Notes under the pieces: generated by a model
Seen by the model: the letters and a program-made list of their open reading frames with translations, nothing else
What the model was told of the DNA's origin: nothing
Database searches by the model: none
Shown here: positions 1,185-26,290 of the stretch, in pieces
Layout of the letters: each line of letters starts with the position of its first letter
Numbering within the stretch: the stretch's first letter is position 1
From: a virus
Reading direction: 5' to 3' (one strand)
Length of the DNA stretch: 33,408 bases
Virus genome (UHGV): UHGV-0124208
Made by a program: the position numbers and the translations under genes

Positions 1185-1202
1185 TGTGTGGTTGTCGGTA
1201 CA
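1185..1202. promoter_or_regulatory. TGT-N12-ACA dyad (Ogr/Delta-type late-promoter activator site) in the divergent P/O control region
   Basis: Sequence TGTGTGGTTGTCGGTACA read directly; P2 late promoters carry a TGT-N12-ACA element near -55 (established knowledge). Which of the two divergent promoters it serves is not resolved. Confidence 0.5.
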
Positions 1203-1280
1203 AATACCGCGCATTGTTTCACTGCCCCCATCACCGCAACCATAAGGCTCCAGTAAGTTTTTTCTAACGGAGCACGGCTC

Positions 1281-2114
1281 ATGACAGTGAAAGCAAAGCG
1301 TTTTCGCATCGGGGTGGAAGGTGCCACCACCGACGGACGCGAAATCCAGCGTGAATGGCTGGAACAGATGGCAGCCAGCTACAACCCGGCGGTGTATACC
1401 GCGCTGATTAACCTTGAGCACATCAAGTCTTATCTGCCGGACAGCACCTTTAACCGCTACGGCAAGGTGACGGCGCTGTTTGCTGAAGAAATCACGGAAG
1501 GTCCGCTGGCAGGCAAGATGGCGCTGTATGCCGACGTTGAGCCAACGGAGTCCCTGGTGGAGCTGGTGAAAAAAGGCCAGAAATTATTCACCTCTATGGA
1601 AGTCAGCCCGAAGTTCGCTGATACGGGCAAAGCCTACCTGGTCGGCCTGGCTGCCACTGATGACCCTGCCAGTCTGGGCACTGAAATGCTGACATTCAGC
1701 GCCAGTGCAGCCCATAACCCACTGGCAAACCGCAAGCAGAATCCTGCCAATCTCTTTACCGCTGCAGAGGAAACGGTGATCGAACTGGAAGAAATCCAGG
1801 ACGACAAACCGTCCCTGTTTGCCCGTGTCACGGCGCTGTTTACCAAAAAAGATCAGTCCGATGACGCCCGGTTCTCTGATGTGCATAAGGCCGTGGAGCT
1901 GGTCGCCACTGAGCAGCAGAACCTGAGCGCACGCACCGAAAAATCCCTGTCTGAGCAGGAAGAACGCCTGTCTGAGCTGGAGACTGCCCTGCAGGCACAG
2001 CAAACCGCCTTTAACGAACTGGTGGACAAGCTGAGTCATGAAGACAGCCGCCAGGACTACCGCCAGCGTGCAACAGGCGGTAACGCCCCCGCTGACAGTC
2101 TGACCAATTGCTGA
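1281..2114 (+). CDS. O: Capsid scaffolding protein gpO
   Basis: 277-aa ORF directly upstream of the major capsid gene; position and size match P2 gpO (about 284 aa). Confidence 0.85.
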   Translation: MTVKAKRFRIGVEGATTDGREIQREWLEQMAASYNPAVYTALINLEHIKSYLPDSTFNRYGKVTALFAEEITEGPLAGKMALYADVEPTESLVELVKKGQKLFTSMEVSPKFADTGKAYLVGLAATDDPASLGTEMLTFSASAAHNPLANRKQNPANLFTAAEETVIELEEIQDDKPSLFARVTALFTKKDQSDDARFSDVHKAVELVATEQQNLSARTEKSLSEQEERLSELETALQAQQTAFNELVDKLSHEDSRQDYRQRATGGNAPADSLTNC

Positions 2115-2130
2115 TGGAGCACAAAACCCG

Positions 2131-3189
2131 ATGAAGAAGAATACCCGCTTTGCTTTTAACGCTTACCTGCAGCAGCTGGCGCGTCTGAACGGTGTGGCAG
2201 TTGAAGAACTGTCCAGCAAGTTCACCGTGGAGCCGTCTGTGCAGCAGACGCTGGAAGACCAGATCCAGCAATCCGCCGCTTTCCTGACGCTGATTAACGT
2301 CACGCCAGTGACCGAGCAGTCCGGTCAGCTGCTGGGGTTGGGTGTTGGTAGCACCATTGCCGGAACCACTGACACCACCGCGAAAGAGCGTGAACCTGTC
2401 GATCCTACGCTGATAGTCGATGTGGAATACAAATGCGAGCAGACCAACTTTGACACGGTGCTGACCTACGCGAAGCTGGACCTGTGGGCGAAGTTTCAGG
2501 ATTTCCAGGTGCGTATTCGTGACGCGATCGTGAAACGTCAGGCACTGGACCGCATCATGATCGGCTTTAACGGCGTGAAGCGTGCGAAAACCTCAAACCG
2601 TAGCGAAAACCCGCTGCTGCAGGATGTGAATAAAGGCTGGCTGCAGAAAATCCGTGAGGATGCACCGGATCACGTCATGGGCAGCACCACCACGGGCGGT
2701 GAAACCACACCGGGTGCGGTGAAAGTCGGGAAAGGTGGCGAATATGCCAACCTGGACGCCGTGGTGATGGATGCCGTCAATGAGCTTATCGACGTGGTCT
2801 ACCAGGACGATGACGATCTGGTGGTGATTTGCGGTCGTGAACTGTTGTCTGACAAGTATTTCCCGCTGGTCAACAAAGAGCAGGAGAACAGTGAAAAACT
2901 GGCTGCAGATATGATCATCAGCCAGAAACGCATGGGTGGCCTGCAGGCCGTGCGTGCGCCGTTCTTCCCGCCGAATGCGCTGCTGATCACCCGTCTGGAT
3001 AACCTGTCCATCTACTGGCAGGAGGATACCCGCCGCCGTTCAGTTATCGACAACCCGAAACGTGACCGGATTGAAAACTTTGAATCCGTTAACGAAGCCT
3101 ATGTGGTTGAGGACTACCGCTGCGCCGCACTGGTGGAAAACATCCAGATTGGCGACTTCAGCGCCGCCGCAGCAGAAACCGGAGCGTAA
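2131..3189 (+). CDS. N: Major capsid protein gpN
   Basis: 352-aa ORF (P2 N is about 357 aa); translation contains stretches I recall from P2 gpN (e.g. KFTVEPSV, DLWAKFQDFQVRIRDAIVKRQ, AADMIISQKR). Confidence 0.9.
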   Translation: MKKNTRFAFNAYLQQLARLNGVAVEELSSKFTVEPSVQQTLEDQIQQSAAFLTLINVTPVTEQSGQLLGLGVGSTIAGTTDTTAKEREPVDPTLIVDVEYKCEQTNFDTVLTYAKLDLWAKFQDFQVRIRDAIVKRQALDRIMIGFNGVKRAKTSNRSENPLLQDVNKGWLQKIREDAPDHVMGSTTTGGETTPGAVKVGKGGEYANLDAVVMDAVNELIDVVYQDDDDLVVICGRELLSDKYFPLVNKEQENSEKLAADMIISQKRMGGLQAVRAPFFPPNALLITRLDNLSIYWQEDTRRRSVIDNPKRDRIENFESVNEAYVVEDYRCAALVENIQIGDFSAAAAETGA

Positions 3190-3192
3190 TCC

Positions 3193-3843
3193 ATGAGCCT
3201 GAGTCCCGCACGGCAGCATCGCCTGCGCGTTCAGGCTGAACAGGCCGCCCGCGAGGGCGGCAGCGTTCGCCACGCGTCGGGCTATGACCTGATGCTGCTG
3301 CAACTGGCGGAAGACCGACGCCGTCTCAAGGGTGTTCAGTCCACGGTCAAAAAAGCGGAAATCAAAGTGGAGCTGCTGCCGAAGTACGCCGCCTGGGCGG
3401 AGGGTGTTCTGGCTGCCGGAGGCGCTCAACAGGATGACGTGCTGATGTACGTGATGCTGTGGCGTATTGATGCCGGAGATTATGCCGGGGCGCTGGAGAT
3501 CGGGCGTCATGCCCTGCGTCATGGCTGGGTGATGCCGCTGGGTAACCGCAACGTGCAGACCGTGCTGGCAGAGGAAATGGCAGACGCGGCACAGAGCGCA
3601 ATGCTTGCCACTACCGGCTTTGATGCCGATCTGTTGCTGCAGACGCTGGAGCTGACAGACGGTCTGGATATGCCGGACCAGTCACGGGCGCGTCTGCATA
3701 AAGCGATTGGCGCTGTCCTGAGTGAAAGTAATCCGGCTTCCGCCCTTAATCATCTCAACCATGCGTTACAGCTCGATCCCCGCTGTGGCGTGAAAAAAGA
3801 CAAACAGCAGCTGGAGCGCAGACTGCGCAATGACAGCCGCTGA
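3193..3843 (+). CDS. M: Terminase small subunit / endonuclease gpM
   Basis: 216-aa ORF after N; contains MYVMLWRIDAGDYAGALEIGRHAL, which resembles the P2 gpM core as I recall it. Confidence 0.8.
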   Translation: MSLSPARQHRLRVQAEQAAREGGSVRHASGYDLMLLQLAEDRRRLKGVQSTVKKAEIKVELLPKYAAWAEGVLAAGGAQQDDVLMYVMLWRIDAGDYAGALEIGRHALRHGWVMPLGNRNVQTVLAEEMADAAQSAMLATTGFDADLLLQTLELTDGLDMPDQSRARLHKAIGAVLSESNPASALNHLNHALQLDPRCGVKKDKQQLERRLRNDSR

Positions 3844-3938
3844 CAGAACGTGCCCCCGCGCACGGGCGGCACGGGGTGGCGAAAGGCACTGCCACATCAA
3901 AACCCCGTCCACCGCCCTTTATTTCAGGAGAAAGCAGC

Positions 3939-4403
3939 ATGAAGTTTGTTGCGCCAGAACAGGCACCGGAACAGGCGGAAATCATCAGAAATACGCCGTT
4001 CTGGCCTGATGTGGACCTGTCGGAGTTTCGCAGCGTGATGCGCACTGACGGCACGGTGACGCAGCCGCGTTTAAAACAGGTTGCGCTGTCGGCAATTTCG
4101 GAGGTCAACGCAGAGCTGTATGAGTTTCGCAGACGTCAGCAGATGCTGGGATATGCCTCGCTGGCAGAGGTTCCGGCGGAACAGCTGGACGGCAAAAGTG
4201 AGCGCATTCATCACTATTTCAACGCGGTTTACTGCTGGGCACGCGCCATGCTCAACGAGCGTTATCAGGACTATGACGCCACGGCATCCGGTGTGAAGCG
4301 GGGCGAGGAACTGGCGGAAGCAAGCGGTGATTTGTGGCGTGACGCCCGCTGGGCCATCAGCCGGGTGCAGGATGCGCCGCACTGCACAGTGGAGCTTATC
4401 TGA
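3939..4403 (+). CDS. L: Head completion/stabilisation protein gpL
   Basis: ATG at 3939 preceded by GGAGAAAGCAGC; the track start at 3876 is a GTG without an RBS. Product begins MKFVAPEQ... and contains NAELYEFRRRQ and LWRDARWAISRVQ, P2 gpL-like. Confidence 0.8.
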   Translation: MKFVAPEQAPEQAEIIRNTPFWPDVDLSEFRSVMRTDGTVTQPRLKQVALSAISEVNAELYEFRRRQQMLGYASLAEVPAEQLDGKSERIHHYFNAVYCWARAMLNERYQDYDATASGVKRGEELAEASGDLWRDARWAISRVQDAPHCTVELI

Positions 4404-4606
4404 TGAAAGTGCGTGCGCATCAGTATGACACGGTGGACGCGCTTTGCTGGCGTCATTACGGGCGCACGCAGGGTGTCACGGAGCAGGTACTGAAGGCAAA
4501 TCCGGGGCTTGCCGAATACGGCCCCTTTTTACCTCACGGGCTGCAGGTGGAGCTGCCGGACATACCGACAACCACCACCGTGCAGACCGTCCAGCTATGG
4601 GACTGA
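4403..4606 (+). CDS. X: Tail protein X
   Basis: 67-aa ORF; the motifs YGRTQGVTEQVLKANPGLAE and LPHGLQVELPD resemble P2 gpX; start overlaps the L stop. Confidence 0.85.
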   Translation: MKVRAHQYDTVDALCWRHYGRTQGVTEQVLKANPGLAEYGPFLPHGLQVELPDIPTTTTVQTVQLWD

Positions 4607-4609
4607 ATT

Positions 4610-4825
4610 ATGACGCTTGAGCGAATCAGTGCCTTTATCACGTATTGCATCGCCGTCGTGCTGGCCTGGCTGGGCGATTTGTCCATCAAGGATGCCTCAA
4701 CGCTGGGCGGCCTGATGATTGGTGTGCTGATGCTGGCTATCAACTGGTACTACAAACACAAAGCCTACCAGCTTCTGCGCGACGGGCAGATCTCGCGGGA
4801 GGACTATGAATCCATCAATCGTTAA
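4610..4825 (+). CDS. Holin, two predicted TM helices (pinholin-like)
   Basis: 71-aa ORF with two hydrophobic segments (AFITYCIAVVLAWLG; LGGLMIGVLMLAINWYY) and a charged C-terminus; immediately upstream of, and overlapping, the endolysin gene. Confidence 0.7.
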   Translation: MTLERISAFITYCIAVVLAWLGDLSIKDASTLGGLMIGVLMLAINWYYKHKAYQLLRDGQISREDYESINR

Positions 4826-5318
4826 ACGCTGCCTTGTCGGGGCCGTGCTGGCTATTGCTGCCGCGCTACCGGGTTTTCAGCAGCTTCACACCTCCGTGGA
4901 GGGGCTGAAACTGATTGCCGATTACGAAGGCTGTCGTCTGCAGCCGTATCAGTGCAGCGCGGGTGTCTGGACCGACGGCATTGGTAATACATCTGGCGTC
5001 ATTCCAGGCAAAACCATTACGGAACGACAGGCCGCGGAAGGGCTGATCTCCAACGTGCTGCGTGTGGAGCGGGCACTGGAAAGGTGTGTGAAGCAACAGC
5101 CACCGCAGAAAGTGTATGACGCGGTGGTGTCATTTACCTTCAACGTGGGGACAGGCAATGCCTGCAGTTCCACGCTGGTGAAATTGCTCAATCAGCGGCG
5201 CTGGGCGGATGCGTGCCGACAGTTGCCGCGCTGGGTTTATGTAAAAGGTGTGTTTAATCAGGGGCTGGATAACCGCCGTGCGCGGGAGATGGCCTGGTGT
5301 TTACAGGGAGCAAACTGA
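4806..5318 (+). CDS. Endolysin, lysozyme-type, with N-terminal signal-arrest-release (SAR) segment
   Basis: 170-aa ORF; N-terminal weakly hydrophobic CLVGAVLAIAAALPGF segment followed by an EG...D...T lysozyme-like catalytic pattern (LIADYEGCRLQPYQCSAGVWTDGIGNT). Confidence 0.8.
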   Translation: MNPSIVKRCLVGAVLAIAAALPGFQQLHTSVEGLKLIADYEGCRLQPYQCSAGVWTDGIGNTSGVIPGKTITERQAAEGLISNVLRVERALERCVKQQPPQKVYDAVVSFTFNVGTGNACSSTLVKLLNQRRWADACRQLPRWVYVKGVFNQGLDNRRAREMAWCLQGAN

Positions 5319-5319
5319 A

Positions 5320-5697
5320 ATGAAAAAGAAATTAATCAGCGGACTGTTTCTGATGTTATGGATGGCGCTGTTAATCGCAGCAATGGTGTATCCGCAGGGG
5401 ATTTTTCCGGTACTGGCAGCGTCCGGCGTTTGGGTAGCCTGTTTGCTGACATGGGCGGTAATTCCGGTAGCACTGGCTGCGTTAATTAAGAATGGCCCGC
5501 TCTGGCAGGAGTTGAGGGCATCTTTGCTGAAGACAATTACCCGAAAAGAAAACGTATTTATCAGCTGGGTGATGCGATTGCTGATTGTCGTCAGTCTCGC
5601 CTGGACGGGGTGGGCTATTACCCTGGTCTTTTATCTACTGACCGTTATTGCCTTCTGGATCACCCGTAATCAGATGGCGCAACAGGTAGCAGCATGA
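5320..5697 (+). CDS. lysA: LysA-like lysis-region membrane protein (about 4 TM)
   Basis: ATG at 5320 (MKKKLISGLF...) right after the endolysin stop; the product is almost entirely hydrophobic helices. Position matches P2 lysA. The track start at 5248 lies inside the endolysin gene. Confidence 0.65.
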   Translation: MKKKLISGLFLMLWMALLIAAMVYPQGIFPVLAASGVWVACLLTWAVIPVALAALIKNGPLWQELRASLLKTITRKENVFISWVMRLLIVVSLAWTGWAITLVFYLLTVIAFWITRNQMAQQVAA

Positions 5698-6122
5698 ACC
5701 GGTTGCTGCTGGTTGTGCTGGCGTTATTACTGGCGGCGCTGGGCTGGCAGACGTGGCGGCTGGCTGATGCCAGCCAGACCATCAGCACGCAGGCAGACGA
5801 GCTGCAGAGCAAAAGCCAGGCACTGGCAAAGAGCAACAGCCAGCTTATCAGCCTGTCCATTCTGACTGAAACCAATAACCGGGAGCAGGCGCGGCTCTAT
5901 GCCGAAGCAGAACAGACCAGCACACTGCTGAGTCAACGACAACACCGGATCGAGGAACTGAAACGTGAGAACGAGGATTTACGCCGCTGGGCTGATACTC
6001 CTTTGCCTGCTGACATTATCCGGCTGCGGGAACGTCCGACACTCACCGGAGGTGCAGCTTACCGTCAGTGGTTGTCCGCGAGTGACGCCGTGTCGGCTGG
6101 ATCAGGCAGCGCCGCGCACTAA
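5694..6122 (+). CDS. lysB: LysB / Rz-like inner-membrane spanin
   Basis: 142-aa ORF with an N-terminal TM anchor (LLLVVLALLLAALGW) then a coiled-coil-like Q/E/R/L-rich region; position matches P2 lysB. Confidence 0.75.
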   Translation: MNRLLLVVLALLLAALGWQTWRLADASQTISTQADELQSKSQALAKSNSQLISLSILTETNNREQARLYAEAEQTSTLLSQRQHRIEELKRENEDLRRWADTPLPADIIRLRERPTLTGGAAYRQWLSASDAVSAGSGSAAH

Positions 6123-6255
6123 CGGTGATCTGAACGCGTTGCTGGATGAAACGGAGGCCGCCTGGGCGGTCTGTGCAGACAAAGTGGACATGATTATTGC
6201 GTGTCAGGAGCGAAACAGTGAACAAACCACAATCCCTGCGCCACGCCCTCAATAA
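5965..6255 (+). CDS. lysC: LysC / Rz1-like outer-membrane lipoprotein spanin, overlapping lysB in the +1 frame
   Basis: Begins in a different frame inside the 3' end of lysB; product has a lipobox (LLTLSGC) and a Pro-rich tail. Start codon uncertain. Confidence 0.65.
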   Translation: MRTRIYAAGLILLCLLTLSGCGNVRHSPEVQLTVSGCPRVTPCRLDQAAPRTNGDLNALLDETEAAWAVCADKVDMIIACQERNSEQTTIPAPRPQ

Positions 6256-6649
6256 AGCGGTGCCTTATGTCCGCAATAACCCGGACAAACTGCATCTGTT
6301 TGTGGATAACGGTTCGCTGGTTGCCACGGGGGCCAGCTCCATGTCGTGGGAGTACCGTTACACCCTGAACGCGGTGATTGAGGATTTCAGCGGCGACCAG
6401 AATCTGCTGATGGCCCCGGTTTTGCTGTGGCTGAGGGATAACCAGCCCGATGCCATCAATAACCCGGCGTTACGGGAAAAACTATTCACCTTTGAGGTGG
6501 ATATTCTGCGCAACGATGTCTGTGATATCAGCCTGAACCTGCAACTGACGGAGCGTGTGTTGGTCAGCACTGACGGCAGTGTGTCGAGCGTTGAAGCTGT
6601 AGCGGAACCTTATGAACCTGAAGAAATGTGGACGGTGAAACGTGGCTGA
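6218..6649 (+). CDS. R: Tail completion protein gpR
   Basis: Start chosen at GTG 6218, preceded by AGGAG at 6205-6209; the track's TTG at 6197 is less likely. Product contains LHLFVDNGSLVATGA and LLWLRDNQPD, P2 R-like. Confidence 0.75.
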   Translation: MNKPQSLRHALNKAVPYVRNNPDKLHLFVDNGSLVATGASSMSWEYRYTLNAVIEDFSGDQNLLMAPVLLWLRDNQPDAINNPALREKLFTFEVDILRNDVCDISLNLQLTERVLVSTDGSVSSVEAVAEPYEPEEMWTVKRG

Positions 6650-7088
6650 ATTGCAGAAGGTGGACGACTGGCTGAGTGCCTTGCTGGCGAATCTGGAGCC
6701 AGCCGCAAGAAGCCGCATGATGCGCCAGCTGGCGCAGGAACTGCGCCGGACACAGCAGCAGAATATCAGGATGCAGCGCAACCCTGATGGCAGCAGTTAT
6801 GAACCGCGCAGGCTAACAGCAAGCAGCAAAAAGGGGCGCATCAAACGTCAGATGTTTACAAAGCTGCGCACCACAAAATACCTGAAAACTGCTGCCAGCG
6901 CCGATTCTGCCAGCGTGCAGTTTGAAGGTAAGGTGCAGCGCATTGCCCGCGTTCACCATTACGGCTTGCGTGATCGCGTCAGTCGCAAAGGACCTGAGGT
7001 CCGTTATGCAGAGCGTCGCCTTCTGGGTGTAAATGATGATGTTGAGGCAATGACCCGCGACATGATTCTGCAATGGCTGGCGGGGTGA
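6642..7088 (+). CDS. S: Tail completion protein gpS
   Basis: 148-aa ORF overlapping the R stop (GTG start as in the track); position and size as P2 gpS. Confidence 0.75.
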   Translation: MAELQKVDDWLSALLANLEPAARSRMMRQLAQELRRTQQQNIRMQRNPDGSSYEPRRLTASSKKGRIKRQMFTKLRTTKYLKTAASADSASVQFEGKVQRIARVHHYGLRDRVSRKGPEVRYAERRLLGVNDDVEAMTRDMILQWLAG

Positions 7089-7092
7089 TCTT

Positions 7093-7110
7093 TGTATCAG
7101 CACTGATACA
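7093..7110. promoter_or_regulatory. Perfect 18-bp palindrome TGTATCAGCACTGATACA (TGT-N12-ACA), candidate Ogr-dependent late promoter element for the V operon
   Basis: Read directly; centred about 55 bp upstream of the V ATG at 7157; matches the P2 late-promoter dyad pattern. Confidence 0.55.
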
Positions 7111-7156
7111 AGTTGCAGTACTGCCGCCTTTCTTCCCCTGATGGCAACCTTTCCCT

Positions 7157-7735
7157 ATGAACGCACAATTAACAGAAATCATGCGCCTTATCACCAACCT
7201 GATCCGCACTGGGGTAGTCACCGAAGTGGACCGGGAGAACTGGCTTTGCCGGGTGAAAACGGGCGACCTCGAAACCAACTGGATCAGCTGGCTGACGCTG
7301 CGTGCCGGGAATGCCCGGACATGGTGGCGACCATCGGAAGGTGAGCAGGTGGTGCTGCTGAGTCTGGGCGGAAATCTGGAAACCGCCTTTGCGCTGCCCG
7401 CTGTGTATTCGAATCAGTTCGCACCACCGTCGACGTCGGCGGACGCCTGCGTGACAGAACATCCTGACGGTGGCTGGTTTGAATACGACCCCGCCACCGG
7501 GCGCTGGTATGTCAGGGGCATCAAATCAATGGTCATTGAGGCCGCTGACAACATCACCATGAAAACCAGTGAGTTTGTACTGGAGGCTGACCGCACGCGT
7601 ATTAACAGCGAAGTAGTGATCAATGGTGGCGTTACCCAGGGCGGCGGAGCGATGAGTTCTAACGGGATCGTGGTTGATGCGCATCAGCATACAGGCGTCC
7701 TGAAAGGCGGCGACACAACCGGAGGTCCGGTATGA
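7157..7735 (+). CDS. V: Baseplate assembly / spike protein gpV
   Basis: 192-aa ORF; N-terminus (LIRTGVVTEVD) and the WWRPSEGEQVVLLSLGG stretch resemble P2 gpV. Confidence 0.85.
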   Translation: MNAQLTEIMRLITNLIRTGVVTEVDRENWLCRVKTGDLETNWISWLTLRAGNARTWWRPSEGEQVVLLSLGGNLETAFALPAVYSNQFAPPSTSADACVTEHPDGGWFEYDPATGRWYVRGIKSMVIEAADNITMKTSEFVLEADRTRINSEVVINGGVTQGGGAMSSNGIVVDAHQHTGVLKGGDTTGGPV

Positions 7736-8091
7736 CGCTTTATAGCGGGATGAACAATACCAGCGGCAAAGTCATTACTGATATTGACCATCTGCGCCAG
7801 TCGGTGCGGGACATTCTGCTGACGCCGCAGGGTAGCCGCATTGCCCGCCGGGAATATGGTTCCCTGCTGTCGGCACTGATAGATCAGCCACAAAATCCGG
7901 CGTTACGCCTGCAGGTTATGTCGGCTGTGTATGTGGCACTGAGTCGCTGGGAGCCACGGCTGACGCTGGATTCCATCACTATTAACAGCAATTTTGACGG
8001 TTCAATGGTGGTGGAGCTGACCGGGCTGCGGAGTAACGGTGTGCCTGTTTCCCTTTCCGTATCAACAGGAGCAGAGAATGGCAGTGATTGA
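7732..8091 (+). CDS. W: Baseplate wedge protein gpW
   Basis: 119-aa ORF overlapping the V stop (ATGA); contains LLTPQGSRIARREYGS, typical of the gpW / T4 gp25 family. Confidence 0.85.
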   Translation: MTLYSGMNNTSGKVITDIDHLRQSVRDILLTPQGSRIARREYGSLLSALIDQPQNPALRLQVMSAVYVALSRWEPRLTLDSITINSNFDGSMVVELTGLRSNGVPVSLSVSTGAENGSD

Positions 8092-8986
8092 CCTTTCGCA
8101 GTTGCCTGCGCCGCAGATTGTGGATGTGCCGGACTTTGAGACGCTGCTTGCCGAACGCAAGGCCGAATTTGTGGCGCTTCATCCGAAAGATGAGCAGGAA
8201 GCAGTGATCCGCACGCTGGAACTGGAATCTGAACCCGTTACCAAATTGTTGCAGGAGAACGCTTATCGTGAGTTGCTTCTGCGCCAGCGCATTAACGAAG
8301 CCGCGCAGGCGGTGATGGTGGCTTATGCCATAGGGAGCGATCTGGACCAGCTCGCTGCCAATTACAACGTGAAACGCCTGACGGTGACGCCTGCTGATAA
8401 TGACGCTATACCGCCCGTTGCGGCTGTGATGGAAAGTGATGAAGCGTTACGCCTGCGTGTGCCTGCAGCCTTTGAAGGGCTTTCAGTTGCGGGGCCAACT
8501 GCAGCTTATGAATTTCATGCCCGAAGCGCCGACGGTCGGGTGGCGGATGCCAGTGCAACCAGCCCGGCACCTGCAGAGGTGGTGCTGACTGTCCTTAGCC
8601 GCGAAGGCGATGGAACTGCAGAAAAAGACCTGCTGGACGTGGTGGAAAAAGCTCTGAACAGTGAGAACGTCCGCCCGGTGGCTGACCGTCTGACGGTTCG
8701 CAGCGCAGAAATCATCCCGTACCGCGTGGAAGCCACCATTTTTCTCTATCCGGGGCCGGAAGCAGAGCCGGTAATGGCAGCGGCAAAAGCCAGCCTGCAG
8801 AGGTACATCGCCAGTCAGACGCGGCTGGGTCGGGATATTCGCCGTAGCGCCATTTTTGCCGCCCTGCATGTGGAGGGTGTGCAGCGTGTGGAACTGGCTT
8901 CCCCGCTGGCGGATGTGGTCCTGAACAAAACGCAGGCGGCATCATGTACGCAGTGGAGCGTGACCAACGGGGGAACGGATGAATAG
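8078..8986 (+). CDS. J: Baseplate protein gpJ
   Basis: ATG at 8078 preceded by AGGAGCAGAGA gives a 302-aa product (P2 J is about 302 aa); the track start at 8039 is a GTG upstream extension. Confidence 0.85.
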   Translation: MAVIDLSQLPAPQIVDVPDFETLLAERKAEFVALHPKDEQEAVIRTLELESEPVTKLLQENAYRELLLRQRINEAAQAVMVAYAIGSDLDQLAANYNVKRLTVTPADNDAIPPVAAVMESDEALRLRVPAAFEGLSVAGPTAAYEFHARSADGRVADASATSPAPAEVVLTVLSREGDGTAEKDLLDVVEKALNSENVRPVADRLTVRSAEIIPYRVEATIFLYPGPEAEPVMAAAKASLQRYIASQTRLGRDIRRSAIFAALHVEGVQRVELASPLADVVLNKTQAASCTQWSVTNGGTDE

Positions 8987-9584
8987 TCTGCTGCCACCGG
9001 GTTCAACACCACTGGAGCGCCGACTGGCGCACACCTGCAGCGGGATTTCTGATCTGCAGGTGCCACTGCGTGACTTATGGAATCCGGCGACCTGTCCGGT
9101 CAGTTTCCTGCCTTATCTCGCCTGGGCATTCTCTGTGGATCGCTGGGACGAGAGCTGGACAGAAAGCGTCAAGCGCCAGGTGGTGAAGGATGCTTTTTAT
9201 ATTCATCAGCATAAAGGGACCACCAGTGCCGTGCGGCGGGTGGTGGAGCCGTTCGGCTTTCTGATCCGCATTATTGAGTGGTGGCAGACCGGAGAGGCAC
9301 CGGGCACGTTTCGCCTGGATATCGGCGTGCAGGACCAGGGCATCACTGAAGATACCTATCTGGAACTTGAGCGACTGATAAGCGATGCCAAACCATGTAG
9401 CCGCCACATGATCGGCATGTCCATCAATCTGCAGACCAGCGGACCGCATTGGGTGGGAGCCGCCAGCTATCTTGGCGAAGAAATCACGATCTATCCGTAT
9501 ATCAACGAAACGATTATTTCCGGTGGCACCGCGCATGAAGGCGGGGCGGTCCATGTTATTGACACAATGAGAGTGAATCCATGA
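8979..9584 (+). CDS. I: Baseplate / tail protein gpI
   Basis: 201-aa ORF overlapping the J stop; position between J and H as in P2. Confidence 0.8.
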   Translation: MNSLLPPGSTPLERRLAHTCSGISDLQVPLRDLWNPATCPVSFLPYLAWAFSVDRWDESWTESVKRQVVKDAFYIHQHKGTTSAVRRVVEPFGFLIRIIEWWQTGEAPGTFRLDIGVQDQGITEDTYLELERLISDAKPCSRHMIGMSINLQTSGPHWVGAASYLGEEITIYPYINETIISGGTAHEGGAVHVIDTMRVNP

Positions 9585-11044
9585 GCACAAAATTTTATAC
9601 CCTGCTGACGGATATTGGCGCGGCGAAACTTGCCAGCGCCGCCGCGATCGGTGTGCCGCTAAAAATTACCCATATGGCGGTGGGCGATGGCGGCGGAGTA
9701 TTGCCAACGCCGGACGCAAAGCAGACGGCACTGGTAAATGAGAAACGCCGGGCTGCGCTGAATATGCTTTATATCGACCCGCAGAATAGCAGCCAGATTA
9801 TTGCTGAACAGGTGATCCCTGAAAACGAGGGCGGTTGGTGGATACGTGAAGTGGGCCTGTTTGATGAGTCAGGGGCATTGATTGCCGTGGGGAACTGCCC
9901 GGAAAGCTATAAACCGCAACTGGCTGAAGGCAGCGGGCGTACCCAGACCGTGCGCATGGTGCTGATTACCAGCAGTACGGACAATATCACACTGAAAATT
10001 GACCCTGCCGTAGTGCTGGCAACCCGCAAGTATGTGGATGATAAGGTACTGGAGCTGAAGGTGTACGCGGATGATCAGATGGCAAAACATCTTGCCGCAC
10101 CGGACCCGCATTCACAGTATGCGCCAAAAGACAGCCCGACGTTTACCGGAACCCCCAAAGCGCCAACGCCAGCGGCGGGGAATAATACTACGCAGCTTGC
10201 GACCACCGCGTTTGTTCAGGCGGCACTGACGACCCTGATTAATGGTGCGCCAGCCACGCTGGACACGCTGAAAGAAATTGCCGCAGCCATTAACAATGAC
10301 CCGAAATTCAGTACCACCATTAACAATGCGCTGGCACTGAAAGCGCCGCTGTCGAGTCCGGCACTCACCGGAACGCCAACCGCACCTACTGCGGCACAGT
10401 CGGTCAACAATACACAGATTGCCACCACGGCATTTGTGAAATCGGCGATTGCGGCAATGGTGGGTTCTGCACCTGCGGCACTGGATACACTGAACGAACT
10501 GGCGGCGGCGCTGGGGAATGACCCGAACTTTGCCACGACAATGCTTAATGCACTGGCAGGTAAACAACCGCTGGACAATACGCTGACTAATTTGAGTGGA
10601 AAGGATGTAGCTGGTCTTCTCACATACCTTGGTTTAGGAGAAGGCTCTGCATTACCCGTAGGTGTGCCTGTTCCGTGGCCTTCAGTCACACCGCCAACAG
10701 GCTGGCTGAAATGCAACGGTGCAGCTTTTTCTGCCGAAGAGTATCCGGAACTGGCAAAAGTTTATCCGACAAATAAATTGCCAGATTTACGCGGCGAATT
10801 CATTCGTGGGTGGGATGATGGAAGAGGAATTGATTCAGGACGGACTCTCCTGTCTGCTCAGGACGGGAGCATTGAGGCACACGGCCATGATTACAATGGG
10901 GTCATCTATACTTCTAGCGGTCCTTCCTGGGCTAATACGACGGATGCGGGACACCGGGCATATTCGGGATTTACATCATCATATGGCGGAAGCGAAACCC
11001 GTCCACGAAATATTGCATTTAACTATATCGTAAGGGCTGCATAA
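9581..11044 (+). CDS. H: Tail fibre protein gpH; the C-terminal receptor-binding tip (from about residue 351) lies inside an invertible segment
   Basis: 487-aa ORF; N-terminus MSTKFYTLLTDIGAAKLA... is P2 H-like; internal about 73-aa tandem repeat; crossover site at 10617-10642 within the coding sequence. Confidence 0.85.
   Translation: MSTKFYTLLTDIGAAKLASAAAIGVPLKITHMAVGDGGGVLPTPDAKQTALVNEKRRAALNMLYIDPQNSSQIIAEQVIPENEGGWWIREVGLFDESGALIAVGNCPESYKPQLAEGSGRTQTVRMVLITSSTDNITLKIDPAVVLATRKYVDDKVLELKVYADDQMAKHLAAPDPHSQYAPKDSPTFTGTPKAPTPAAGNNTTQLATTAFVQAALTTLINGAPATLDTLKEIAAAINNDPKFSTTINNALALKAPLSSPALTGTPTAPTAAQSVNNTQIATTAFVKSAIAAMVGSAPAALDTLNELAAALGNDPNFATTMLNALAGKQPLDNTLTNLSGKDVAGLLTYLGLGEGSALPVGVPVPWPSVTPPTGWLKCNGAAFSAEEYPELAKVYPTNKLPDLRGEFIRGWDDGRGIDSGRTLLSAQDGSIEAHGHDYNGVIYTSSGPSWANTTDAGHRAYSGFTSSYGGSETRPRNIAFNYIVRAA
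10133..10573 (+). repeat. Tandem duplication (2 x about 73 codons) inside tail fibre H
   Basis: Protein residues 185-257 (SPTFTGTPKAPTPAAGNNTTQLATTAFVQAALTTLINGAPATLDTLKEIAAAINNDPKFSTTINNALALKAPL) and 258-331 (SSPALTGTPTAPTAAQSVNNTQIATTAFVKSAIAAMVGSAPAALDTLNELAAALGNDPNFATTMLNALAGKQPL) are clearly homologous. Confidence 0.85.
10617..10642. promoter_or_regulatory. Hin/Gin-type 26-bp inversion crossover site inside H (left boundary of invertible segment)
   Basis: TTCTCACATACC-TT-GGTTTAGGAGAA: imperfect dyad with a 2-bp core, same layout as hix/gix/cix sites; the right half encodes G-L-G-E in the H frame. Confidence 0.7.
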
Positions 11045-11646
11045 TGGATAACGCCGTATTAAATAGCGAGATTATTGCCACGAAGGCGGGGAATATTACC
11101 GTCTATAACTATGATGGTAAAACTCGGGAATATATTTCTACTTCAAATGAATATCTTGCCATTGGTGTCGGTATCCCTGCATATTCCTGTTTAGATTCAC
11201 CAGTTACACGTAAAGCTGGTTATGCAATCTGCCGTTCTGCAGATTTTAACTCATGGGAATATGTGCCAGATCATCGCGGTGAAATCGTTTTTAGCACCGA
11301 AACAGGAGAATCAAAAGAAATCACAGCACCAGGTGATTACCCTGAAAATACAACCACTATCGCCCCGTTAACGCCATACGATGAATGGGATGGTGAGAAA
11401 TGGGTGACGGATACCGAGGCACAGCATAGCGCCGCAGTAGACGCGGCAGAAGCACAGCGCCAGTCGCTGATTGATGCTGCAATGGCTTCCATTAGTCTGA
11501 TTCAGCTGAAATTACAGGCCGGGCGGAAGCTGACGCAGGCAGAAACCACCCGGCTTAACGCCGTGCTTGATTACATTGACGCGGTGACGGCAACAGATAC
11601 GAGCACCGCGCCGGATGTCATCTGGCCTGAACTGCCGGAGGCGTAG
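11044..11646 (+). CDS. G: Tail fibre assembly chaperone gpG (paired with the currently expressed H tip)
   Basis: 200-aa ORF overlapping the H stop (TAATGG); ends ...DVIWPELPEA, the typical Tfa C-terminus. Confidence 0.8.
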   Translation: MDNAVLNSEIIATKAGNITVYNYDGKTREYISTSNEYLAIGVGIPAYSCLDSPVTRKAGYAICRSADFNSWEYVPDHRGEIVFSTETGESKEITAPGDYPENTTTIAPLTPYDEWDGEKWVTDTEAQHSAAVDAAEAQRQSLIDAAMASISLIQLKLQAGRKLTQAETTRLNAVLDYIDAVTATDTSTAPDVIWPELPEA

Positions 11647-12058
11647 GCCATTCAATATCTGGCGCACCGGAAGTATCGACCAGTTCCAGTGCGTCCAGAT
11701 AATCCAGCCACAAATTATATTGCGCCAGTTCGTCACCTTTCAGACGACCAATAGCCGCTTTACCAGGCCATTGTTTACTGTTCATATAATCGTTGGCCTG
11801 ATTAATCAATTGCTGCTTTTCCAGTTCGGCTGCAGCAATCTGTTCCTCATGTGTTGGTGGTGGAATTTCAGACCATGCAGGAAAACCATTTTCTCCAGCG
11901 ATACGGATTTTTCCTTTCGGCGGTAATCCGGAAAACTCAATATACACCTGCTCATCAACTTCAACAGCATCATCTGGCCATGAGTCAGCTTGAGTGTAAT
12001 CCTCTTTCATCTCCAGCGGATAGAAAGAGTTTGTAGTCGCGGAATATATATAATTCAT
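11618..12058 (-). CDS. Alternative tail fibre assembly chaperone (G'), paired with the silent alternative H tip
   Basis: 146-aa minus-strand ORF convergent with, and overlapping, G; ends ...APDIEWPTPPAVQAR, the same Tfa C-terminal signature. Confidence 0.75.
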   Translation of the reverse strand: MNYIYSATTNSFYPLEMKEDYTQADSWPDDAVEVDEQVYIEFSGLPPKGKIRIAGENGFPAWSEIPPPTHEEQIAAAELEKQQLINQANDYMNSKQWPGKAAIGRLKGDELAQYNLWLDYLDALELVDTSGAPDIEWPTPPAVQAR

Positions 12059-12079
12059 TTCTCATTCCATATAGCTAAA

Positions 12080-12472
12080 TTAACAGCCTAACGCTAAAAA
12101 TGAAGCGCCGAGACCTGGAGTACCGGCTCTGGATATAAATTTAACCGGGTCGGAACTAAAACCTGCACAGGCAATATAACCAACAGCCCCGCTATCTGGT
12201 GTGTAGTCTTGTGAGACCAAAACACGCAGACATCTGTTCGGAAATGCAATCGGGAAATGGGTTACCACATCCTGTGCAATGCCTGGAGTGCTGATTGAGC
12301 CCCACTGAAGAATCAAACCAGATGGTAATTTTTGATATCCAGTACCTGAAACAGAAAGCGTGAAGCTACCCATATCAGGTATCTGATTCGCCCCTGTCCC
12401 CACATTCCTTTTTGCCGCTTCTCCCAAACCAACGTTTATGAAAATGCAGAGATAACGGCTAACTGGCATCAT
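12080..12472 (-). CDS. Alternative tail-fibre C-terminal tip segment (Hv'), promoterless; would fuse in frame to the H constant part after inversion
   Basis: Minus-strand ORF whose N-terminal region spans the 12419-12444 crossover site and encodes the same G-L-G-E junction as H; no independent start is expected (the ATG at 12472 is probably fortuitous). Confidence 0.65.
12419..12444. promoter_or_regulatory. Hin/Gin-type 26-bp inversion crossover site (right boundary of invertible segment)
   Basis: TTCTCCCAAACC-AA-CGTTTATGAAAA; its reverse complement aligns with the 10617 site (core TT, flanking half GGTTTGGGAGAA vs GGTTTAGGAGAA). Confidence 0.7.
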
Positions 12473-12499
12473 CTCCGGTTTTTATTCAGGGGGATGATC

Positions 12500-13066
12500 A
12501 TGCTTATTGGCTATGTACGCGTGTCAACAAATGACCAGAACACCGATTTGCAACGCAATGCACTGAACTGTGCGGGATGTGAGCGGATTTTTGAGGATAA
12601 AATCAGTGGCACCAAGTCCGACAGACCGGGGCTGAAAAAGCTGCTCAGGACACTATCGGCAGGAGACACGCTGGTTGTCTGGAAGCTGGACAGACTGGGG
12701 CGCAGTATGCGGCATCTTGTTACGCTGATAGAAGAGCTGCGCCAGCGTGGCGTGAATTTCCGAAGCCTGACTGACAGTATTGATACCAGCACCCCAATGG
12801 GCCGTTTCTTTTTTCATGTCATGGGTGCCCTGGCTGAAATGGAACGCGAACTGATAGTTGAACGTACCAGGGCGGGGCTGGCTGCAGCTCGTGCTAAAGG
12901 CAGAGTAGGTGGACGCCGTCCTAAGTTGACCAGCGAACAGTGGGCACAGATTGGGCGTTTACTCGAGGCCGGAGAATCAAGACAGCGTATTGCACTGATT
13001 TTTGATGTAGGCGTTTCTACCATTTATCGAAAATTTCCGGCAAATAAGAACAATAAATCTCCCTGA
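12500..13066 (+). CDS. Site-specific DNA invertase, serine recombinase of the Gin/Hin/Pin/Cin family
   Basis: MLIGYVRVSTNDQNTDLQRNAL...GDTLVVWKLDRLGRS...MGRFFFHVMGALAEMERELIVERT... is near-identical in motif content to Gin/Hin as I recall them (catalytic Ser in YVRVS). ATG 12500 chosen over 12494 for spacing to the GGGGG RBS. Confidence 0.9.
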   Translation: MLIGYVRVSTNDQNTDLQRNALNCAGCERIFEDKISGTKSDRPGLKKLLRTLSAGDTLVVWKLDRLGRSMRHLVTLIEELRQRGVNFRSLTDSIDTSTPMGRFFFHVMGALAEMERELIVERTRAGLAAARAKGRVGGRRPKLTSEQWAQIGRLLEAGESRQRIALIFDVGVSTIYRKFPANKNNKSP

Positions 13067-13114
13067 ATCAGCTTTATTTTGATTATCCCTGAAAGCAGAC
13101 AAATACCGTCATTT

Positions 13115-13132
13115 TGTGTGAATAACGGTACA
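13115..13132. promoter_or_regulatory. TGT-N12-ACA dyad, candidate Ogr-dependent late promoter element for the FI operon
   Basis: TGTGTGAATAACGGTACA read directly; closely resembles the dyad at 1185-1202; upstream of FI (ATG 13209). Confidence 0.5.
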
Positions 13133-13208
13133 ACTGCGCTTAGCTGTTTGTCAGGCACAATCACTTCAACATAGGGCGAAGCCTAATCCAATCAGGAGGT
13201 TCGCCACT

Positions 13209-18949: not shown

Positions 18950-20046
18950 ATTTCAGCTCTGAACTGCTTAACAAAGGCAACAAAACTCCCGCATTCAGCA
19001 TCAGTATTGAGGGGAAGGATATCACCACTGTGCTGGATAACCGCCTGATGAGTCTGACGTTGACGGACAATCGGGGCTTTGAAGCAGACCAGCTTGATCT
19101 GGAGCTGGACGACGCCGACGGAAAAATCGTGCTGCCGCGCCGTGGTGCGGTCATCACGCTGGCGCTGGGCTGGAAGGGGCAGCCGCTTTTCCCGAAAGGG
19201 GCATTCACGGTGGACGAGATTGAACACACTGGCGCACCGGATCGCCTGACTATCCGGGCGCGAAGTGCTGATTTTAGGGAAACGCTGAATACCCGCCGTG
19301 AAAAATCGTGGCATAAGACCACCGTCGGGGAAGTGGTGAAGGAAATAGCCGCGCGGCACAAGCTGAAGATGGCACTGAGTAAAGACCTGTCGGATAAGCC
19401 CGTGGAGCATATAGACCAGACTAATGAGAGTGACGGCAGTTTTCTGATGCGGCTGGCGCGACAGTACGGTGCCATCGCGTCGGTGAAAAATGGCAATCTG
19501 TTATTCATCCGGCAGGGGCAGGGCAAAAGCGCCACTGGTAAACCTCTGCCAGTGATCACTATCACACGCAAGGACGGCGACAGTCACCGATTTACCCTGG
19601 CAGATCGCGGAGCCTACACGGGCGTAATTGCCAGCTGGTTGCATACCCGCGAACCTGCGAAGAAAGAAAGCACCACGGTGAAGCGTAAGCGCAGAACTAA
19701 GAAGCAGAAGAAAGAGCCAGAAGCGAAGCAGGGCGATTACCTGGTGGGTACGGATGAAAACGTGCTGGTACTTAATCGCACTTATGCCAACCGGAGCAAC
19801 GCCGAACGAGCGGCGAAAATGCAGTGGGAACGCCTGCAACGCGGCGTTGCGTCATTTTCTCTACAACTGGCAGAAGGGCGGGCAGATCTCTACACGGAAA
19901 TGCCTGTGAAGGTCAGTGGTTTTAAACAGCCGATAGATGATGCGGAATGGACCATTACGACTCTGACGCATACCGTAAGCCCGGATAATGGTTTTACGAC
20001 CAGTCTGGAGCTTGAAGTGAGGATTGATGATTTCGAAATGGAATGA
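18946..20046 (+). CDS. D: Tail protein gpD
   Basis: 366-aa ORF overlapping the U stop; last gene of the tail operon, as P2 D. Confidence 0.85.
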   Translation: MNFSSELLNKGNKTPAFSISIEGKDITTVLDNRLMSLTLTDNRGFEADQLDLELDDADGKIVLPRRGAVITLALGWKGQPLFPKGAFTVDEIEHTGAPDRLTIRARSADFRETLNTRREKSWHKTTVGEVVKEIAARHKLKMALSKDLSDKPVEHIDQTNESDGSFLMRLARQYGAIASVKNGNLLFIRQGQGKSATGKPLPVITITRKDGDSHRFTLADRGAYTGVIASWLHTREPAKKESTTVKRKRRTKKQKKEPEAKQGDYLVGTDENVLVLNRTYANRSNAERAAKMQWERLQRGVASFSLQLAEGRADLYTEMPVKVSGFKQPIDDAEWTITTLTHTVSPDNGFTTSLELEVRIDDFEME

Positions 20047-20136
20047 TTCTTCGCAATGGAGAACTTTTAAGTTTGCAAAATGGAATAATGCGGTATCATT
20101 ATTGTGAATTTAGCAAAAATGGGGAGAACTCGAAAA

Positions 20137-20355
20137 ATGATGATTTGCCCACTGTGTGGAAGTGCCGCCCATACTCGCAGCAGTTTTCAGGTATCTTCAT
20201 TGACCAAAGAGCGTTACAACCAGTGCCAGAACATTAACTGCAGCCATACTTTTGTTACCCATGAAACTTTTGTTCGTTCGATTGCAACGCCAAAAGAGTC
20301 AAATCCGGTTCAGCCGCATCCAATGAAATCAGGACAGGTAGCGCTCTCTCTTTGA
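20137..20355 (+). CDS. ogr: Ogr/Delta-family zinc-finger late transcription activator
   Basis: From ATG 20137: MMICPLCGSAAHTRSS...KERYNQCQNINCSHTF... (72 aa) with CxxC...CxxxxC spacing like P2 Ogr; the track start at 20104 is a GTG extension. Confidence 0.9.
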   Translation: MMICPLCGSAAHTRSSFQVSSLTKERYNQCQNINCSHTFVTHETFVRSIATPKESNPVQPHPMKSGQVALSL

Positions 20356-21646: not shown

Positions 21647-23416
21647 TCATACGTCAGGGGTAATCCAGTCGACTAAAGCCTCAATACTTTCGAAATCTGC
21701 ACAGATATCTGAAAGAGGTTGTGTATCTGCTTTTGTTTTGAAATCAGCCCATACTGATTCATTTTTTTCTGTAAGACCCAAATGGTTTTCTATCGAACCA
21801 TTTAGCCAAATCCAAATATTTGCATTTCTCAGTTTTGCGGCTAATGATGACAAAAATTCTCTGGCGCCGGGCTTTTGAGACATAATAGCAAATGCTTCAG
21901 CTGCGGTAGTGTTACTACCCTTTGTAGGCAAACCGGATCCATCGAGAGTGCATTCTCCATTAGCATGCATACTTCTCAAGATTTCTTTTAGTCGTAAAAT
22001 ATCCTCGTCATTATGTTCTAAGAAGTTGTTCCTTATTGCACCGCGGAACGCAAAATCTAAATCAACAATTGCTTTTGTAGGTATATCCATTGAATTTAGA
22101 ATTTGCATCGTTTTAGATATACTTTCAACGGACCCTGTTTCAATTAGTGCTATTTGCATCTGACCTAATGTTTTATTTTTAACTTTGTTAAAAATAAATG
22201 GGAGCAGAGTAGTCTCTGTTTTACCTTCTGTTAGTATTACATTGTTAGCAAACAAAACTTTTGAAGACTGTGTTAATGAAAATAAATGGGTTGCTTGTGC
22301 TGGTCGTTGTTCGATTACTTTATTGACTGCTTCTTTTAATGTTAATCTGCAATGAGTGCCACGCTGACTGTTTTTTCTGATTAACACAGTGTCTTTTGCT
22401 AAGTCAGAGGTAATCATTTGAGATGAATGGGTAGAGAAAATTATTTGATATCCATGATGAGATAGTGTTTTTAGAGATTCTCTAATTTGTTCGATAGCAA
22501 ATGGGTGAAGATATAACTCAGGTTCATCTATTAACAGTAGAGTAGTTGTTTTAATATCATCACCGTTGGTTATATCAGCTAAATGTCTTATTAGAGACAT
22601 CTGAATCGAACGCTGTGTGCCATGACCATAAGAAGAACAGTCACGAGCAATGCCGGGAAATGAATCTTCATATACTTTTACAGTCCCAGATTTAAATATA
22701 TCCTTGAAGTCAGGGAGTTCGAAGTGTAGTTTTAAACTTATCCCAGGGAAGAAATCAGCAAGTTTACTACTTATTGAATCATCAATATCATTGAGGTCCG
22801 ATATTCGTTTATTACCGGTTGCAGTCATTCTTCTATTAACGGCATTTAAATGGCTTAGTATCCTTTGAGTGTGCTTCTCTTCTATTTTGCAACTCAATTC
22901 TGCCAGCAACTTACCTATTGTAGTTCCTGTTTTTGATTTTGAAGAATCATCCGCTGCATTTTCCATTGCACCTATACGTATTGGGTCTGGAAATAAAGCT
23001 TTTATCGCATTCTCAATACCCGTTGGTGATGTCCTGAATTCGTTATTTTCTGGGTTTTTAATTAATAATCTGACGTCTTTTGCACTTTGAGCACCAACAG
23101 TCTGTTGACGCTTAAATATCAATACCCCATCAATAATGTAGGGTGAAATTCTAGTTCTGTTTTCTTCTGTTAAAGCTGACAAAATATCTTCAGTAATACC
23201 CTTAACTGTACCTATAACTTCTATAGGGTTATCTGGATTAGTATAATCATCAGAGGACAAAAGTTTTTTCTTAAAAAGCCATTCAATAGCATTTAAAATC
23301 GTTGACTTACCAGCATTGTTGTAACCGATTAAAGGCGTGAATGAAGAAAAATTGATATCAATATCTTTGCAAGATCTAAAGTTTTTTATAGAAATCTTTG
23401 AAAGATGATGATTCAT
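21647..23416 (-). CDS. old: OLD-family ATP-dependent nuclease (N-terminal ABC-type ATPase + C-terminal Toprim), P2 Old-like, single-gene
   Basis: 589-aa ORF. N-terminal Walker A in ISIKNFRSCK...LIGYNNAGKSTILNAI; central FGHGTQRSIQM and LLIDEPELYLHP (Walker B-like); C-terminal VILTEGKTET...VDLDF Toprim-like acidic motifs. AT-rich relative to flanks. Located between cI and int. Confidence 0.75.
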   Translation of the reverse strand: MNHHLSKISIKNFRSCKDIDINFSSFTPLIGYNNAGKSTILNAIEWLFKKKLLSSDDYTNPDNPIEVIGTVKGITEDILSALTEENRTRISPYIIDGVLIFKRQQTVGAQSAKDVRLLIKNPENNEFRTSPTGIENAIKALFPDPIRIGAMENAADDSSKSKTGTTIGKLLAELSCKIEEKHTQRILSHLNAVNRRMTATGNKRISDLNDIDDSISSKLADFFPGISLKLHFELPDFKDIFKSGTVKVYEDSFPGIARDCSSYGHGTQRSIQMSLIRHLADITNGDDIKTTTLLLIDEPELYLHPFAIEQIRESLKTLSHHGYQIIFSTHSSQMITSDLAKDTVLIRKNSQRGTHCRLTLKEAVNKVIEQRPAQATHLFSLTQSSKVLFANNVILTEGKTETTLLPFIFNKVKNKTLGQMQIALIETGSVESISKTMQILNSMDIPTKAIVDLDFAFRGAIRNNFLEHNDEDILRLKEILRSMHANGECTLDGSGLPTKGSNTTAAEAFAIMSQKPGAREFLSSLAAKLRNANIWIWLNGSIENHLGLTEKNESVWADFKTKADTQPLSDICADFESIEALVDWITPDV

Positions 23417-26063: not shown

Positions 26064-26290
26064 TGGCTGATGCAATGGATCTTGTACAGCAGCGCGTTGA
26101 AGAAGAACGCCAGCGCCATATCCGTGCTGCCCGTGCCAAAACGCCGGGCGTGTCCCGCGTGCTTTGCATTGAGTGTGAAGCGCCAATTCCGCCAGCACGC
26201 CGCCGCGCCATTCCAGGTGTGCAGCTTTGCATTACCTGTCAGGAAATCGCAGAGCTGAAAGGCAAACATTACAACGGAGGTGCTGTATGA
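26063..26290 (+). CDS. TraR/DksA-family C4 zinc-finger protein
   Basis: 75-aa ORF with CIECEAPIP...CITCQ (CxxC-N17-CxxC), characteristic of phage TraR-like proteins (P2 orf82-like position). Confidence 0.75.
   Translation: MADAMDLVQQRVEEERQRHIRAARAKTPGVSRVLCIECEAPIPPARRRAIPGVQLCITCQEIAELKGKHYNGGAV

Follow-up and report, generated by a model that had tools for sequence, protein, structure and literature searches.

The 33,408-nucleotide viral sequence UHGV-0124208 (the window, by which we mean this whole stretch of DNA) contains three dyads of the form TGT-N12-ACA, located at 1185-1202, 7093-7110 and 13115-13132. We propose, with a probability of about 0.9, that these dyads are binding sites of the phage activator Ogr and that they control four activator-dependent late promoters, pP, pO, pV and pF. 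A first-pass annotation had pointed to the three dyads, and all of them were found to be exact at these coordinates. Its reading of the dyads as activator sites of the Ogr/Delta type is supported, at the sequence level, by their P2-like positions, by their conservation among related phages and by the presence of a cognate ogr gene in the same genome.

The proposed sequence of events is as follows. Late in infection, Ogr would be made from its own sigma-70-type promoter, would bind each TTGT-N12-ACAA dyad and would bring in the host RNA polymerase via the alpha subunit. The polymerase would then act on weak core promoters, with -10-like hexamers placed 46 bp off, and start transcription about 55-56 bp from the dyad centre. 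The dyad at 1185-1202 would be used both ways, leftward for P-Q (terminase large subunit and portal) and rightward for O through S (scaffold, capsid, small terminase, lysis and tail completion), while 7093-7110 would drive V-W-J-I-H-G and 13115-13132 would drive FI-FII-E-T-U-D. That Ogr binds and activates in this way, that it contacts the alpha subunit, and where the transcripts start are points transferred to the window by analogy with P2 and coliphage 186. For P2, PMC3152322 describes Ogr as binding conserved inverted repeats centred at about -55, with a required contact to the RNA polymerase alpha subunit, and PMC11434276 and PMC3152322 state that P2 late activation requires the C-terminal domain of this subunit (rpoA109 phenotype). 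PMC3931495 gives TGT-N12-ACA as common to the four P2 late promoters and summarises the four operons.

Three dyads at the late-operon starts of a P2-like genome

Using all P2 proteins as tblastn queries, we recovered the P2 late gene order in the window: Q and P on the - strand, then O, N, M, L, X, the lysis genes, R and S, followed by V, W, J, I and H, by FI, FII, E, T, U, D and ogr, and then by int, an old-like gene and A. This map agrees with the earlier claim that the dyads stand at the expected late-operon starts, for P/Q and O-S, for V-G and for FI-D. Gene P was found in two halves on the - strand, one at each end of the window (1138 to 1, then 33406 to 32783), indicating that the window holds a complete, circularly permuted genome of ~33.4 kb. 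Over its first 8 kb, the window shares ~97% identity with prophage-type phages of Klebsiella and Escherichia, including 4LV2017 (96.8%; KY271398), which is classified in the genus Elveevirus of the family Peduoviridae. Judged by its sequence, the window is a P2-like genome of the Fels-2/Elveevirus type. An ogr gene had been announced at 20137, and the open reading frame starting there indeed encodes a zinc-finger protein of the Ogr/Delta family (Pfam PF04606, E 5e-22), whose Cys4, Cys7, Cys30 and Cys35 align with those of P2 Ogr in the arrangement C4-X2-C7-X22-C30-X4-C35.

The first and third dyads had been described as nearly identical, which holds for 14 of their 18 bases, all four differences lying in the central spacer. 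The second one had been called a perfect 18-bp palindrome. Its reverse complement, TGTATCAGTGCTGATACA, shows that only 16 of the 18 positions are symmetric, the site being made of 8-bp arms (9 bp with the flanking T/A) around a non-symmetric central CA; one relative has a C-to-T change that renders the site a perfect palindrome. The statement that a single dyad is found in the P/O region is literally wrong, as a second bare match to the pattern, TGTGGTGTTCATGGCACA, is located at 1127-1144. We do not take this match for a further P/O site: it overlaps the start codon and first codons of P, scores 13.8 bits with the weight matrix described below and occurs in 14 of 43 related P/O regions.

Conservation was followed in 80 IMG/VR loci each for O, V and FI, and in 60 additional loci chosen as one genome per species. 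For V, TGT-N12-ACA was present in all 79 usable loci, starting 63-66 nt before the ATG (centre 54.5-57.5 bp before it), in a sample comprising 37 distinct 200-nt upstream regions and 13 distinct dyads. The FI loci gave the same result (79/79 usable), with the dyad starting 87-94 nt before the FI ATG, among 69 distinct upstream regions and 37 distinct dyads. Upstream of P and O, the dyad was found in 42/42 relatives from other enterobacterial species. Among 42 aligned P/O intergenic sequences, conservation was highest in the TTGT and ACAA columns, in both -10 regions and in a TTGTTT block at the presumed -35 position of pO. The 40 nt upstream were, by contrast with the sites, near random when one representative per distinct dyad was compared, with a pairwise identity of 31% for V and 35% for FI. 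Pooling 87 distinct sites led to the consensus T-TGT-(G/A)(T/C)(C/G)(A/G)...ACA-A.

Phages that are otherwise 91-100% identical have unrelated DNA directly before their pV and pF dyads, suggesting that the V and FI junctions are hot spots for the insertion of cargo genes, comparable to orf30 and fun(Z) in P2. Evidently, different phages have acquired different cargo genes at these two places while retaining the dyad, its distance and a -10-like element.

Several points weigh against the Ogr reading. The bare TGT-N12-ACA pattern shows no window-wide enrichment, with 7 matches compared to 8.98 +/- 3.07 in shuffled sequences, and the case consequently rests on where the sites lie and how they are conserved. 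A weight matrix derived from the relatives' sites gives exactly three strong hits in the window, of 24.8, 24.6 and 21.6 bits, the sole ones above 20 bits, in a test that is partly circular since the matrix contains sites identical to those of the window. The best scores in shuffled sequences had a mean of 8.9 (standard deviation 3.3), and 1 of 200 shuffles reached 22.4. In addition, the 100% identity of TGT and ACA across the sites arises by construction, the sites having been picked with the pattern; the informative point is that zero loci were found without a site.

Could the dyads then be functionless chance matches to a short degenerate pattern? The pattern fixes only six bases and its number of matches is the one expected, and the four other matches in the window (1127, 14425, 16420 and 22369) are either not conserved, at P/O, or contained within coding sequence. 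However, all three dyads stand at the positions predicted from P2, they are kept at the same offset in every usable relative although their flanks are ~31-35% identical, and they alone exceed 20 bits in the window. By our own arithmetic, the chance of finding the six-base pattern within +/-3 bp of the position predicted from P2 is ~0.002 per promoter. The comparative data thus effectively refute chance, which we consider extremely improbable. The matches at 14425, 16420 and 22369, lying within FII, T and the old-like gene, respectively, were rejected for their poor fit to the extended consensus; the first scores -1.7 bits and the two others are outside the 25 best weight-matrix hits. A TGC-N12-ACA element was also noticed at 19848-19865, inside the 3' end of D and ~290 bp upstream of ogr, with a score of 10.1 bits that is within the range of the shuffles.

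A second alternative concerns the dyad at 7093-7110, whose main role could be that of an RNA hairpin terminating or stabilising the transcript of the O operon, or which could be bound by another DNA-binding protein, instead of being the pV activator site. It is the most symmetric of the three dyads (16/18), it could form a 9-bp RNA stem, and P2 has a terminator between S and V. However, the stem is AU-rich and followed by no U-tract, its folding is unremarkable (z = -1.45, 19 of 200 shuffles folding as well), and a terminator scan gave only a weak hairpin at 7065-7086 and none at 7093-7110. Moreover, the relatives do not keep the inner symmetry (0-6 of the 6 inner pairs, mean 2.6), whereas they keep TGT, ACA and the distance to the V ATG, and the P2 pV site is equally distant from its own V ATG. 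We consequently regard a hairpin, or a site for another protein, as very improbable compared with an Ogr site. The S-V gap itself (7089-7156) is 68 bp long and without a convincing terminator, and transcripts from pO probably read through into the V operon.

Sites of the type bound by host CRP/FNR regulators (TGTGA-N6-TCACA) also had to be considered since the outer bases of the dyads resemble CRP half-sites (TGTGT.../...ACA). A position ~55-60 bp upstream, which is typical of class I activation by CRP, was counted in favour of this alternative. In CRP sites, TGT and ACA are 10 bp apart, while this spacing is 12 bp at all three dyads and in every relative examined. The N12 spacing defines the late promoters of the P2 family, as stated in PMC3931495, and the phage carries the cognate activator. 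Host regulator sites are, in our opinion, scarcely credible here, and the assignment of the three dyads to Ogr is retained. The features on which it relies are listed in Table 1.

Table 1. Positions in the window of the dyads, of the predicted promoter elements and of the associated genes
Feature	Position	Strand	Remarks
Start codon of gene P (terminase large subunit)	1138-1136	-	tblastn with P2 proteins
Start of gene O	1281	+	tblastn with P2 proteins
Start codon of gene V	7157-7159	+	tblastn with P2 proteins
Start of gene FI	13209	+	tblastn with P2 proteins
Stop codon of gene S	7086-7088		pV dyad begins 5 bp after
Putative Ogr dyad common to divergent pP and pO	1185-1202	none	TGTGTGGTTGTCGGTACA; centre 1193.5; flanks T/A (TTGT...ACAA)
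Putative pV activator dyad	7093-7110	none	TGTATCAGCACTGATACA; centre 7101.5
Putative pF activator dyad	13115-13132	none	TGTGTGAATAACGGTACA; centre 13123.5; 49 bp past the invertase stop codon
Predicted pP -10 hexamer TAGGTT (TAnnnT)	1150-1145	-	Ends 6 nt before the P ATG; homologous to P2 TAGCCT
Candidate weak pO -35, conserved TTGTTT within GCaTTGTTTCAC	1214-1219	+	17 nt before the -10-like hexamer; our own inference
Predicted pO -10 region CAACCAT (CAACCA 1237-1242, or AACCAT)	1237-1243	+	Same 46-bp offset as P2 GAAACT
Predicted pO start	near 1249-1250	+	O ATG at 1281
Predicted pV -10 hexamer CAACCT	7145-7150	+	6 nt before the V ATG
Predicted pF -10 hexamer CAACAT	13167-13172	+	Inside the conserved block AaCATAgg
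Predicted pF start	about 13179-13182	+	FI ATG at 13209, preceded by AGGAGG
ogr, 72-aa late activator	20137-20355	+	51% identical to P2 Ogr; Pfam Ogr_Delta
Predicted sigma-70-like promoter of ogr, TTTGCA-16 nt-TATCAT	20072-20099	+	Position relative to ogr as annotated in P2

Predicted core promoters and leaderless transcripts

The four -10-like hexamers (TAGGTT, CAACCA, CAACCT and CAACAT) are all centred exactly 46 bp from a dyad centre. A promoter scan reported no sigma-70 consensus promoter at any of the three dyad sites, and the hexamers of the window match TATAAT solely at A2 and T6. These core promoters would thus be weak, as expected of activator-dependent promoters.

On the two sides of the shared dyad, the distance to the start codon behaves differently. 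On the P side, 55.5 bp separate the centre from the A of the ATG in the window and in 42/42 relatives; on the O side, the distance to the ATG spreads over 19 bp among relatives (81.5-100.5 bp). Of 25 distinct 20-mers taken upstream of P, 24 have a TAnnnT motif ending 6 nt ahead of the ATG. No Shine-Dalgarno sequence is located at a usable distance from P, the sole AAGG motif ending 15 nt upstream of the ATG. When aligned to P2, 186 and PSP3, the P ATG of the window falls on the mapped +1 of P2, and those phages have an extra 23-nt leader containing GAGG. A similar situation was observed for V: the window has its dyad centre 55.5 bp before the ATG, and only 2 of 15 distinct upstream 20-mers carry a Shine-Dalgarno-like motif. 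All 19 distinct O leaders and all FI leaders possess one. From this geometry, two of the four late transcripts, those of P (1138, - strand) and V (7157), probably begin exactly at the start codon, unlike the O and FI transcripts, which would have ~30-nt leaders with a Shine-Dalgarno sequence. We lean slightly towards the view that, in the Fels-2/Elveevirus lineage, P lost its 23-nt leader and that the shared Ogr site gives rise to a leaderless P mRNA with the AUG at its 5' end.

The position of the P start codon itself was examined through conservation. It is an ATG in all relatives. Residues 9-16 of P (DLDPRRQA) are conserved, P2 included, and Met17 is replaced by Leu in several relatives, indicating that the first ATG is the true start. 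The annotation of 4LV2017 (KY271398) starts gpP 16 codons downstream of this conserved ATG (1090 versus 1138 in window coordinates), at Met17, and we rejected Met17 as the start since it is not conserved whereas residues 9-16 are. The mis-start in 4LV2017 likely arises from the true start having no Shine-Dalgarno sequence.

Another explanation could be that the dyad at 1185-1202 serves pO alone, P being transcribed from an upstream start with a leader or via 1127-1144 and translated conventionally. Leaderless translation is weak in E. coli, judging from PMC4633059; P2, 186 and PSP3 have a ~23-nt leader with GAGG before P; and a GenBank relative annotates the shorter P from Met17. However, a site serving O alone fits poorly with a distance to the P ATG that is fixed at 55.5 bp in 42/42 relatives when the O side varies by 19 bp, or with a TAnnnT exactly 6 nt before this ATG, homologous to the -10 of the mapped pP of P2. 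Met17 lacks conservation, unlike residues 9-16, which are also conserved in P2. As for 1127-1144, it is present in 14/43 loci and lies downstream of any possible P start, and an earlier P start would fall in or beyond the dyad, where the scan reported no -10/-35 candidates. A dyad used by O alone is therefore unlikely, and use of the site in both directions remains our preferred reading.

The other objections to the proposed model concern the start sites. The choice of the -10 hexamer is uncertain by 1-4 nt at pO (CAACCA or AACCAT) and at pF. The distance from the dyad centre to the V ATG varies from 54.5 to 57.5 bp among relatives, so that transcription could start exactly at the ATG in every one of them only if the dyad-to-start spacing flexes. 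A literature search found no start-site, footprint or Ogr-dependence data for phages of the Fels-2 type. Leaderless translation in E. coli reaches ~10% of leadered translation according to PMC4633059, which also cites P2 among the few leaderless cases of the E. coli type. Such inefficiency sits oddly with an essential terminase, though only low amounts of terminase are needed. No described leaderless gene P for a terminase large subunit was found in the literature search. Leaderless phage mRNAs are exemplified by P2 gene V and lambda cI, and the P and V mRNAs predicted here would likewise start at the AUG without a Shine-Dalgarno sequence.

Comparison with P2, 186, Fels-2 and P4

The P2 record annotates three activator sites for four mapped starts. 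One of them is a single "activator binding site; pO, pP promoters", whose dyad TGTGTCAGTGATAAGCCA is centred at 3071.5, midway between the mapped P (3016) and O (3127) starts and 55.5 bp from each. The pV start of P2 is at the first base of the V ATG, CAATCT being 7 nt before this ATG, and its pF start is 56.5-58.5 bp from the dyad centre. P2 and the window are alike in the operons controlled, in the TGT-N12-(A/C)CA dyad and in the Cys4 motif of the activator. Their -10 hexamers are homologous in pairs (TAGCCT/TAGGTT, GAAACT/CAACCA and CAATCT/CAACCT, P2 given first), and TAGCCT lies 6 nt before the mapped pP start. They also differ in several respects. The right arm in P2 is CCA at pO/pP and pF, while the window has a perfect ACA at all three sites, and the P2 pV has no exact N12 dyad, its TGT-to-ACA gap being read as 11 or 14 nt. 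In P2, S and V are separated by orf30 and a terminator, and fun(Z) precedes pF, whereas in the window the pV dyad comes directly after S and the pF dyad after a DNA invertase gene.

In coliphage 186, the late promoters activated by the B protein are p12/pV, p32 and pJ. One B-protein site (3798-3817) serves the divergent p12 and pV, and a B site is located upstream of pJ. Since P2 and 186 each annotate one shared site, the single P/O dyad of the window corresponds to the normal layout and does not denote a gap. The gap between the S and V homologues is 69 bp in 186, with a TGT-containing element ~56 bp before the ATG of the V homologue. Unlike the window, 186 has imperfect right arms (CCA) and a ~22-nt leader before its P homologue.

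The layout matches that of Fels-2 (Felsduovirus). Its P/O intergenic region is also 142 bp long, and the perfect dyad in it lies at 55.5 bp from the P ATG. The same distance separates a second dyad from the V ATG, a third dyad is located upstream of FI, and the invertase and tail-fibre genes are organised as in the window. Late promoters carry no annotation in the Fels-2 and 4LV2017 records.

The Delta activator of satellite phage P4 is a covalently duplicated Ogr-like protein. Unlike P4, the window has no satellite genes and its activator is a single 72-aa unit. In satellite P4, the Psid and PLL promoters are activated by Delta, a member of the Ogr_Delta family. The sites are of the TGT-N12-ACA type (PMC3931495, citing Julien & Calendar 1995).

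Neighbouring genes and meaning for the phage family

An invertible tail-fibre segment was recognised within 10617-13066, with a layout as in Fels-2. Two 27-nt crossover sites of the hix/gix type, 81% complementary and with the core AAACCAAGGTTT, are located at 10617-10643, within H, and at 12418-12444. They were recovered with a laxer inverted-repeat search, a seed of 9 giving none. The - strand of the segment encodes an alternative C-terminus for H (12472-12080) as well as a second tail-fibre assembly gene (12058-11618); a Hin/Gin-type invertase gene comes next, at 12494-13066.

Outside of the late operons, an open reading frame at 23460-24398 (- strand) encodes a 186-type CI repressor of 312 aa, with two matches to the Phage_CI_repr helix-turn-helix domain and a CI C-terminal domain. 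Between int and this gene, a nuclease of the OLD family with ATPase and TOPRIM domains is encoded at 21647-23416 (- strand) and shares 37% identity with P2 Old; in P2, the old gene is at the opposite end of the genome, unlike this old-like gene beside int. A gene for an adenine methylase of the Dam type (D12 class) was found in the early region at 26227-27144 (+ strand), and one for a SieB-like superinfection-exclusion protein at 31156-31701 (+ strand), adjoining the end of Q.

The arrangement proposed here is the textbook late control of P2-type phages in a P2-family member that had not been characterised, and it leaves the understanding of such control unchanged. If the leaderless start of P is true, a single dyad would be 55.5 bp from both divergent starts with base-pair precision, and the leaderless P could keep terminase and portal low relative to the scaffold and capsid made from the same shared site. 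The mis-starting of P by gene callers, as in 4LV2017, would also be accounted for, and a leaderless terminase mRNA would be a small, testable addition to the short list of enterobacterial leaderless genes. In practice, the four late promoters and the operon boundaries can be annotated with confidence in a very common prophage family of Klebsiella and other Enterobacteriaceae, and the start of the terminase gene can be corrected in at least one deposited relative. Finally, the natural variants collected here (13 distinct dyads at pV, 37 at pF and 23 at pP/pO) provide the extended consensus T-TGT-R-Y-S-R...ACA-A, which could guide Ogr binding studies and the prediction of cross-activation between helper phages and P4-like satellites.

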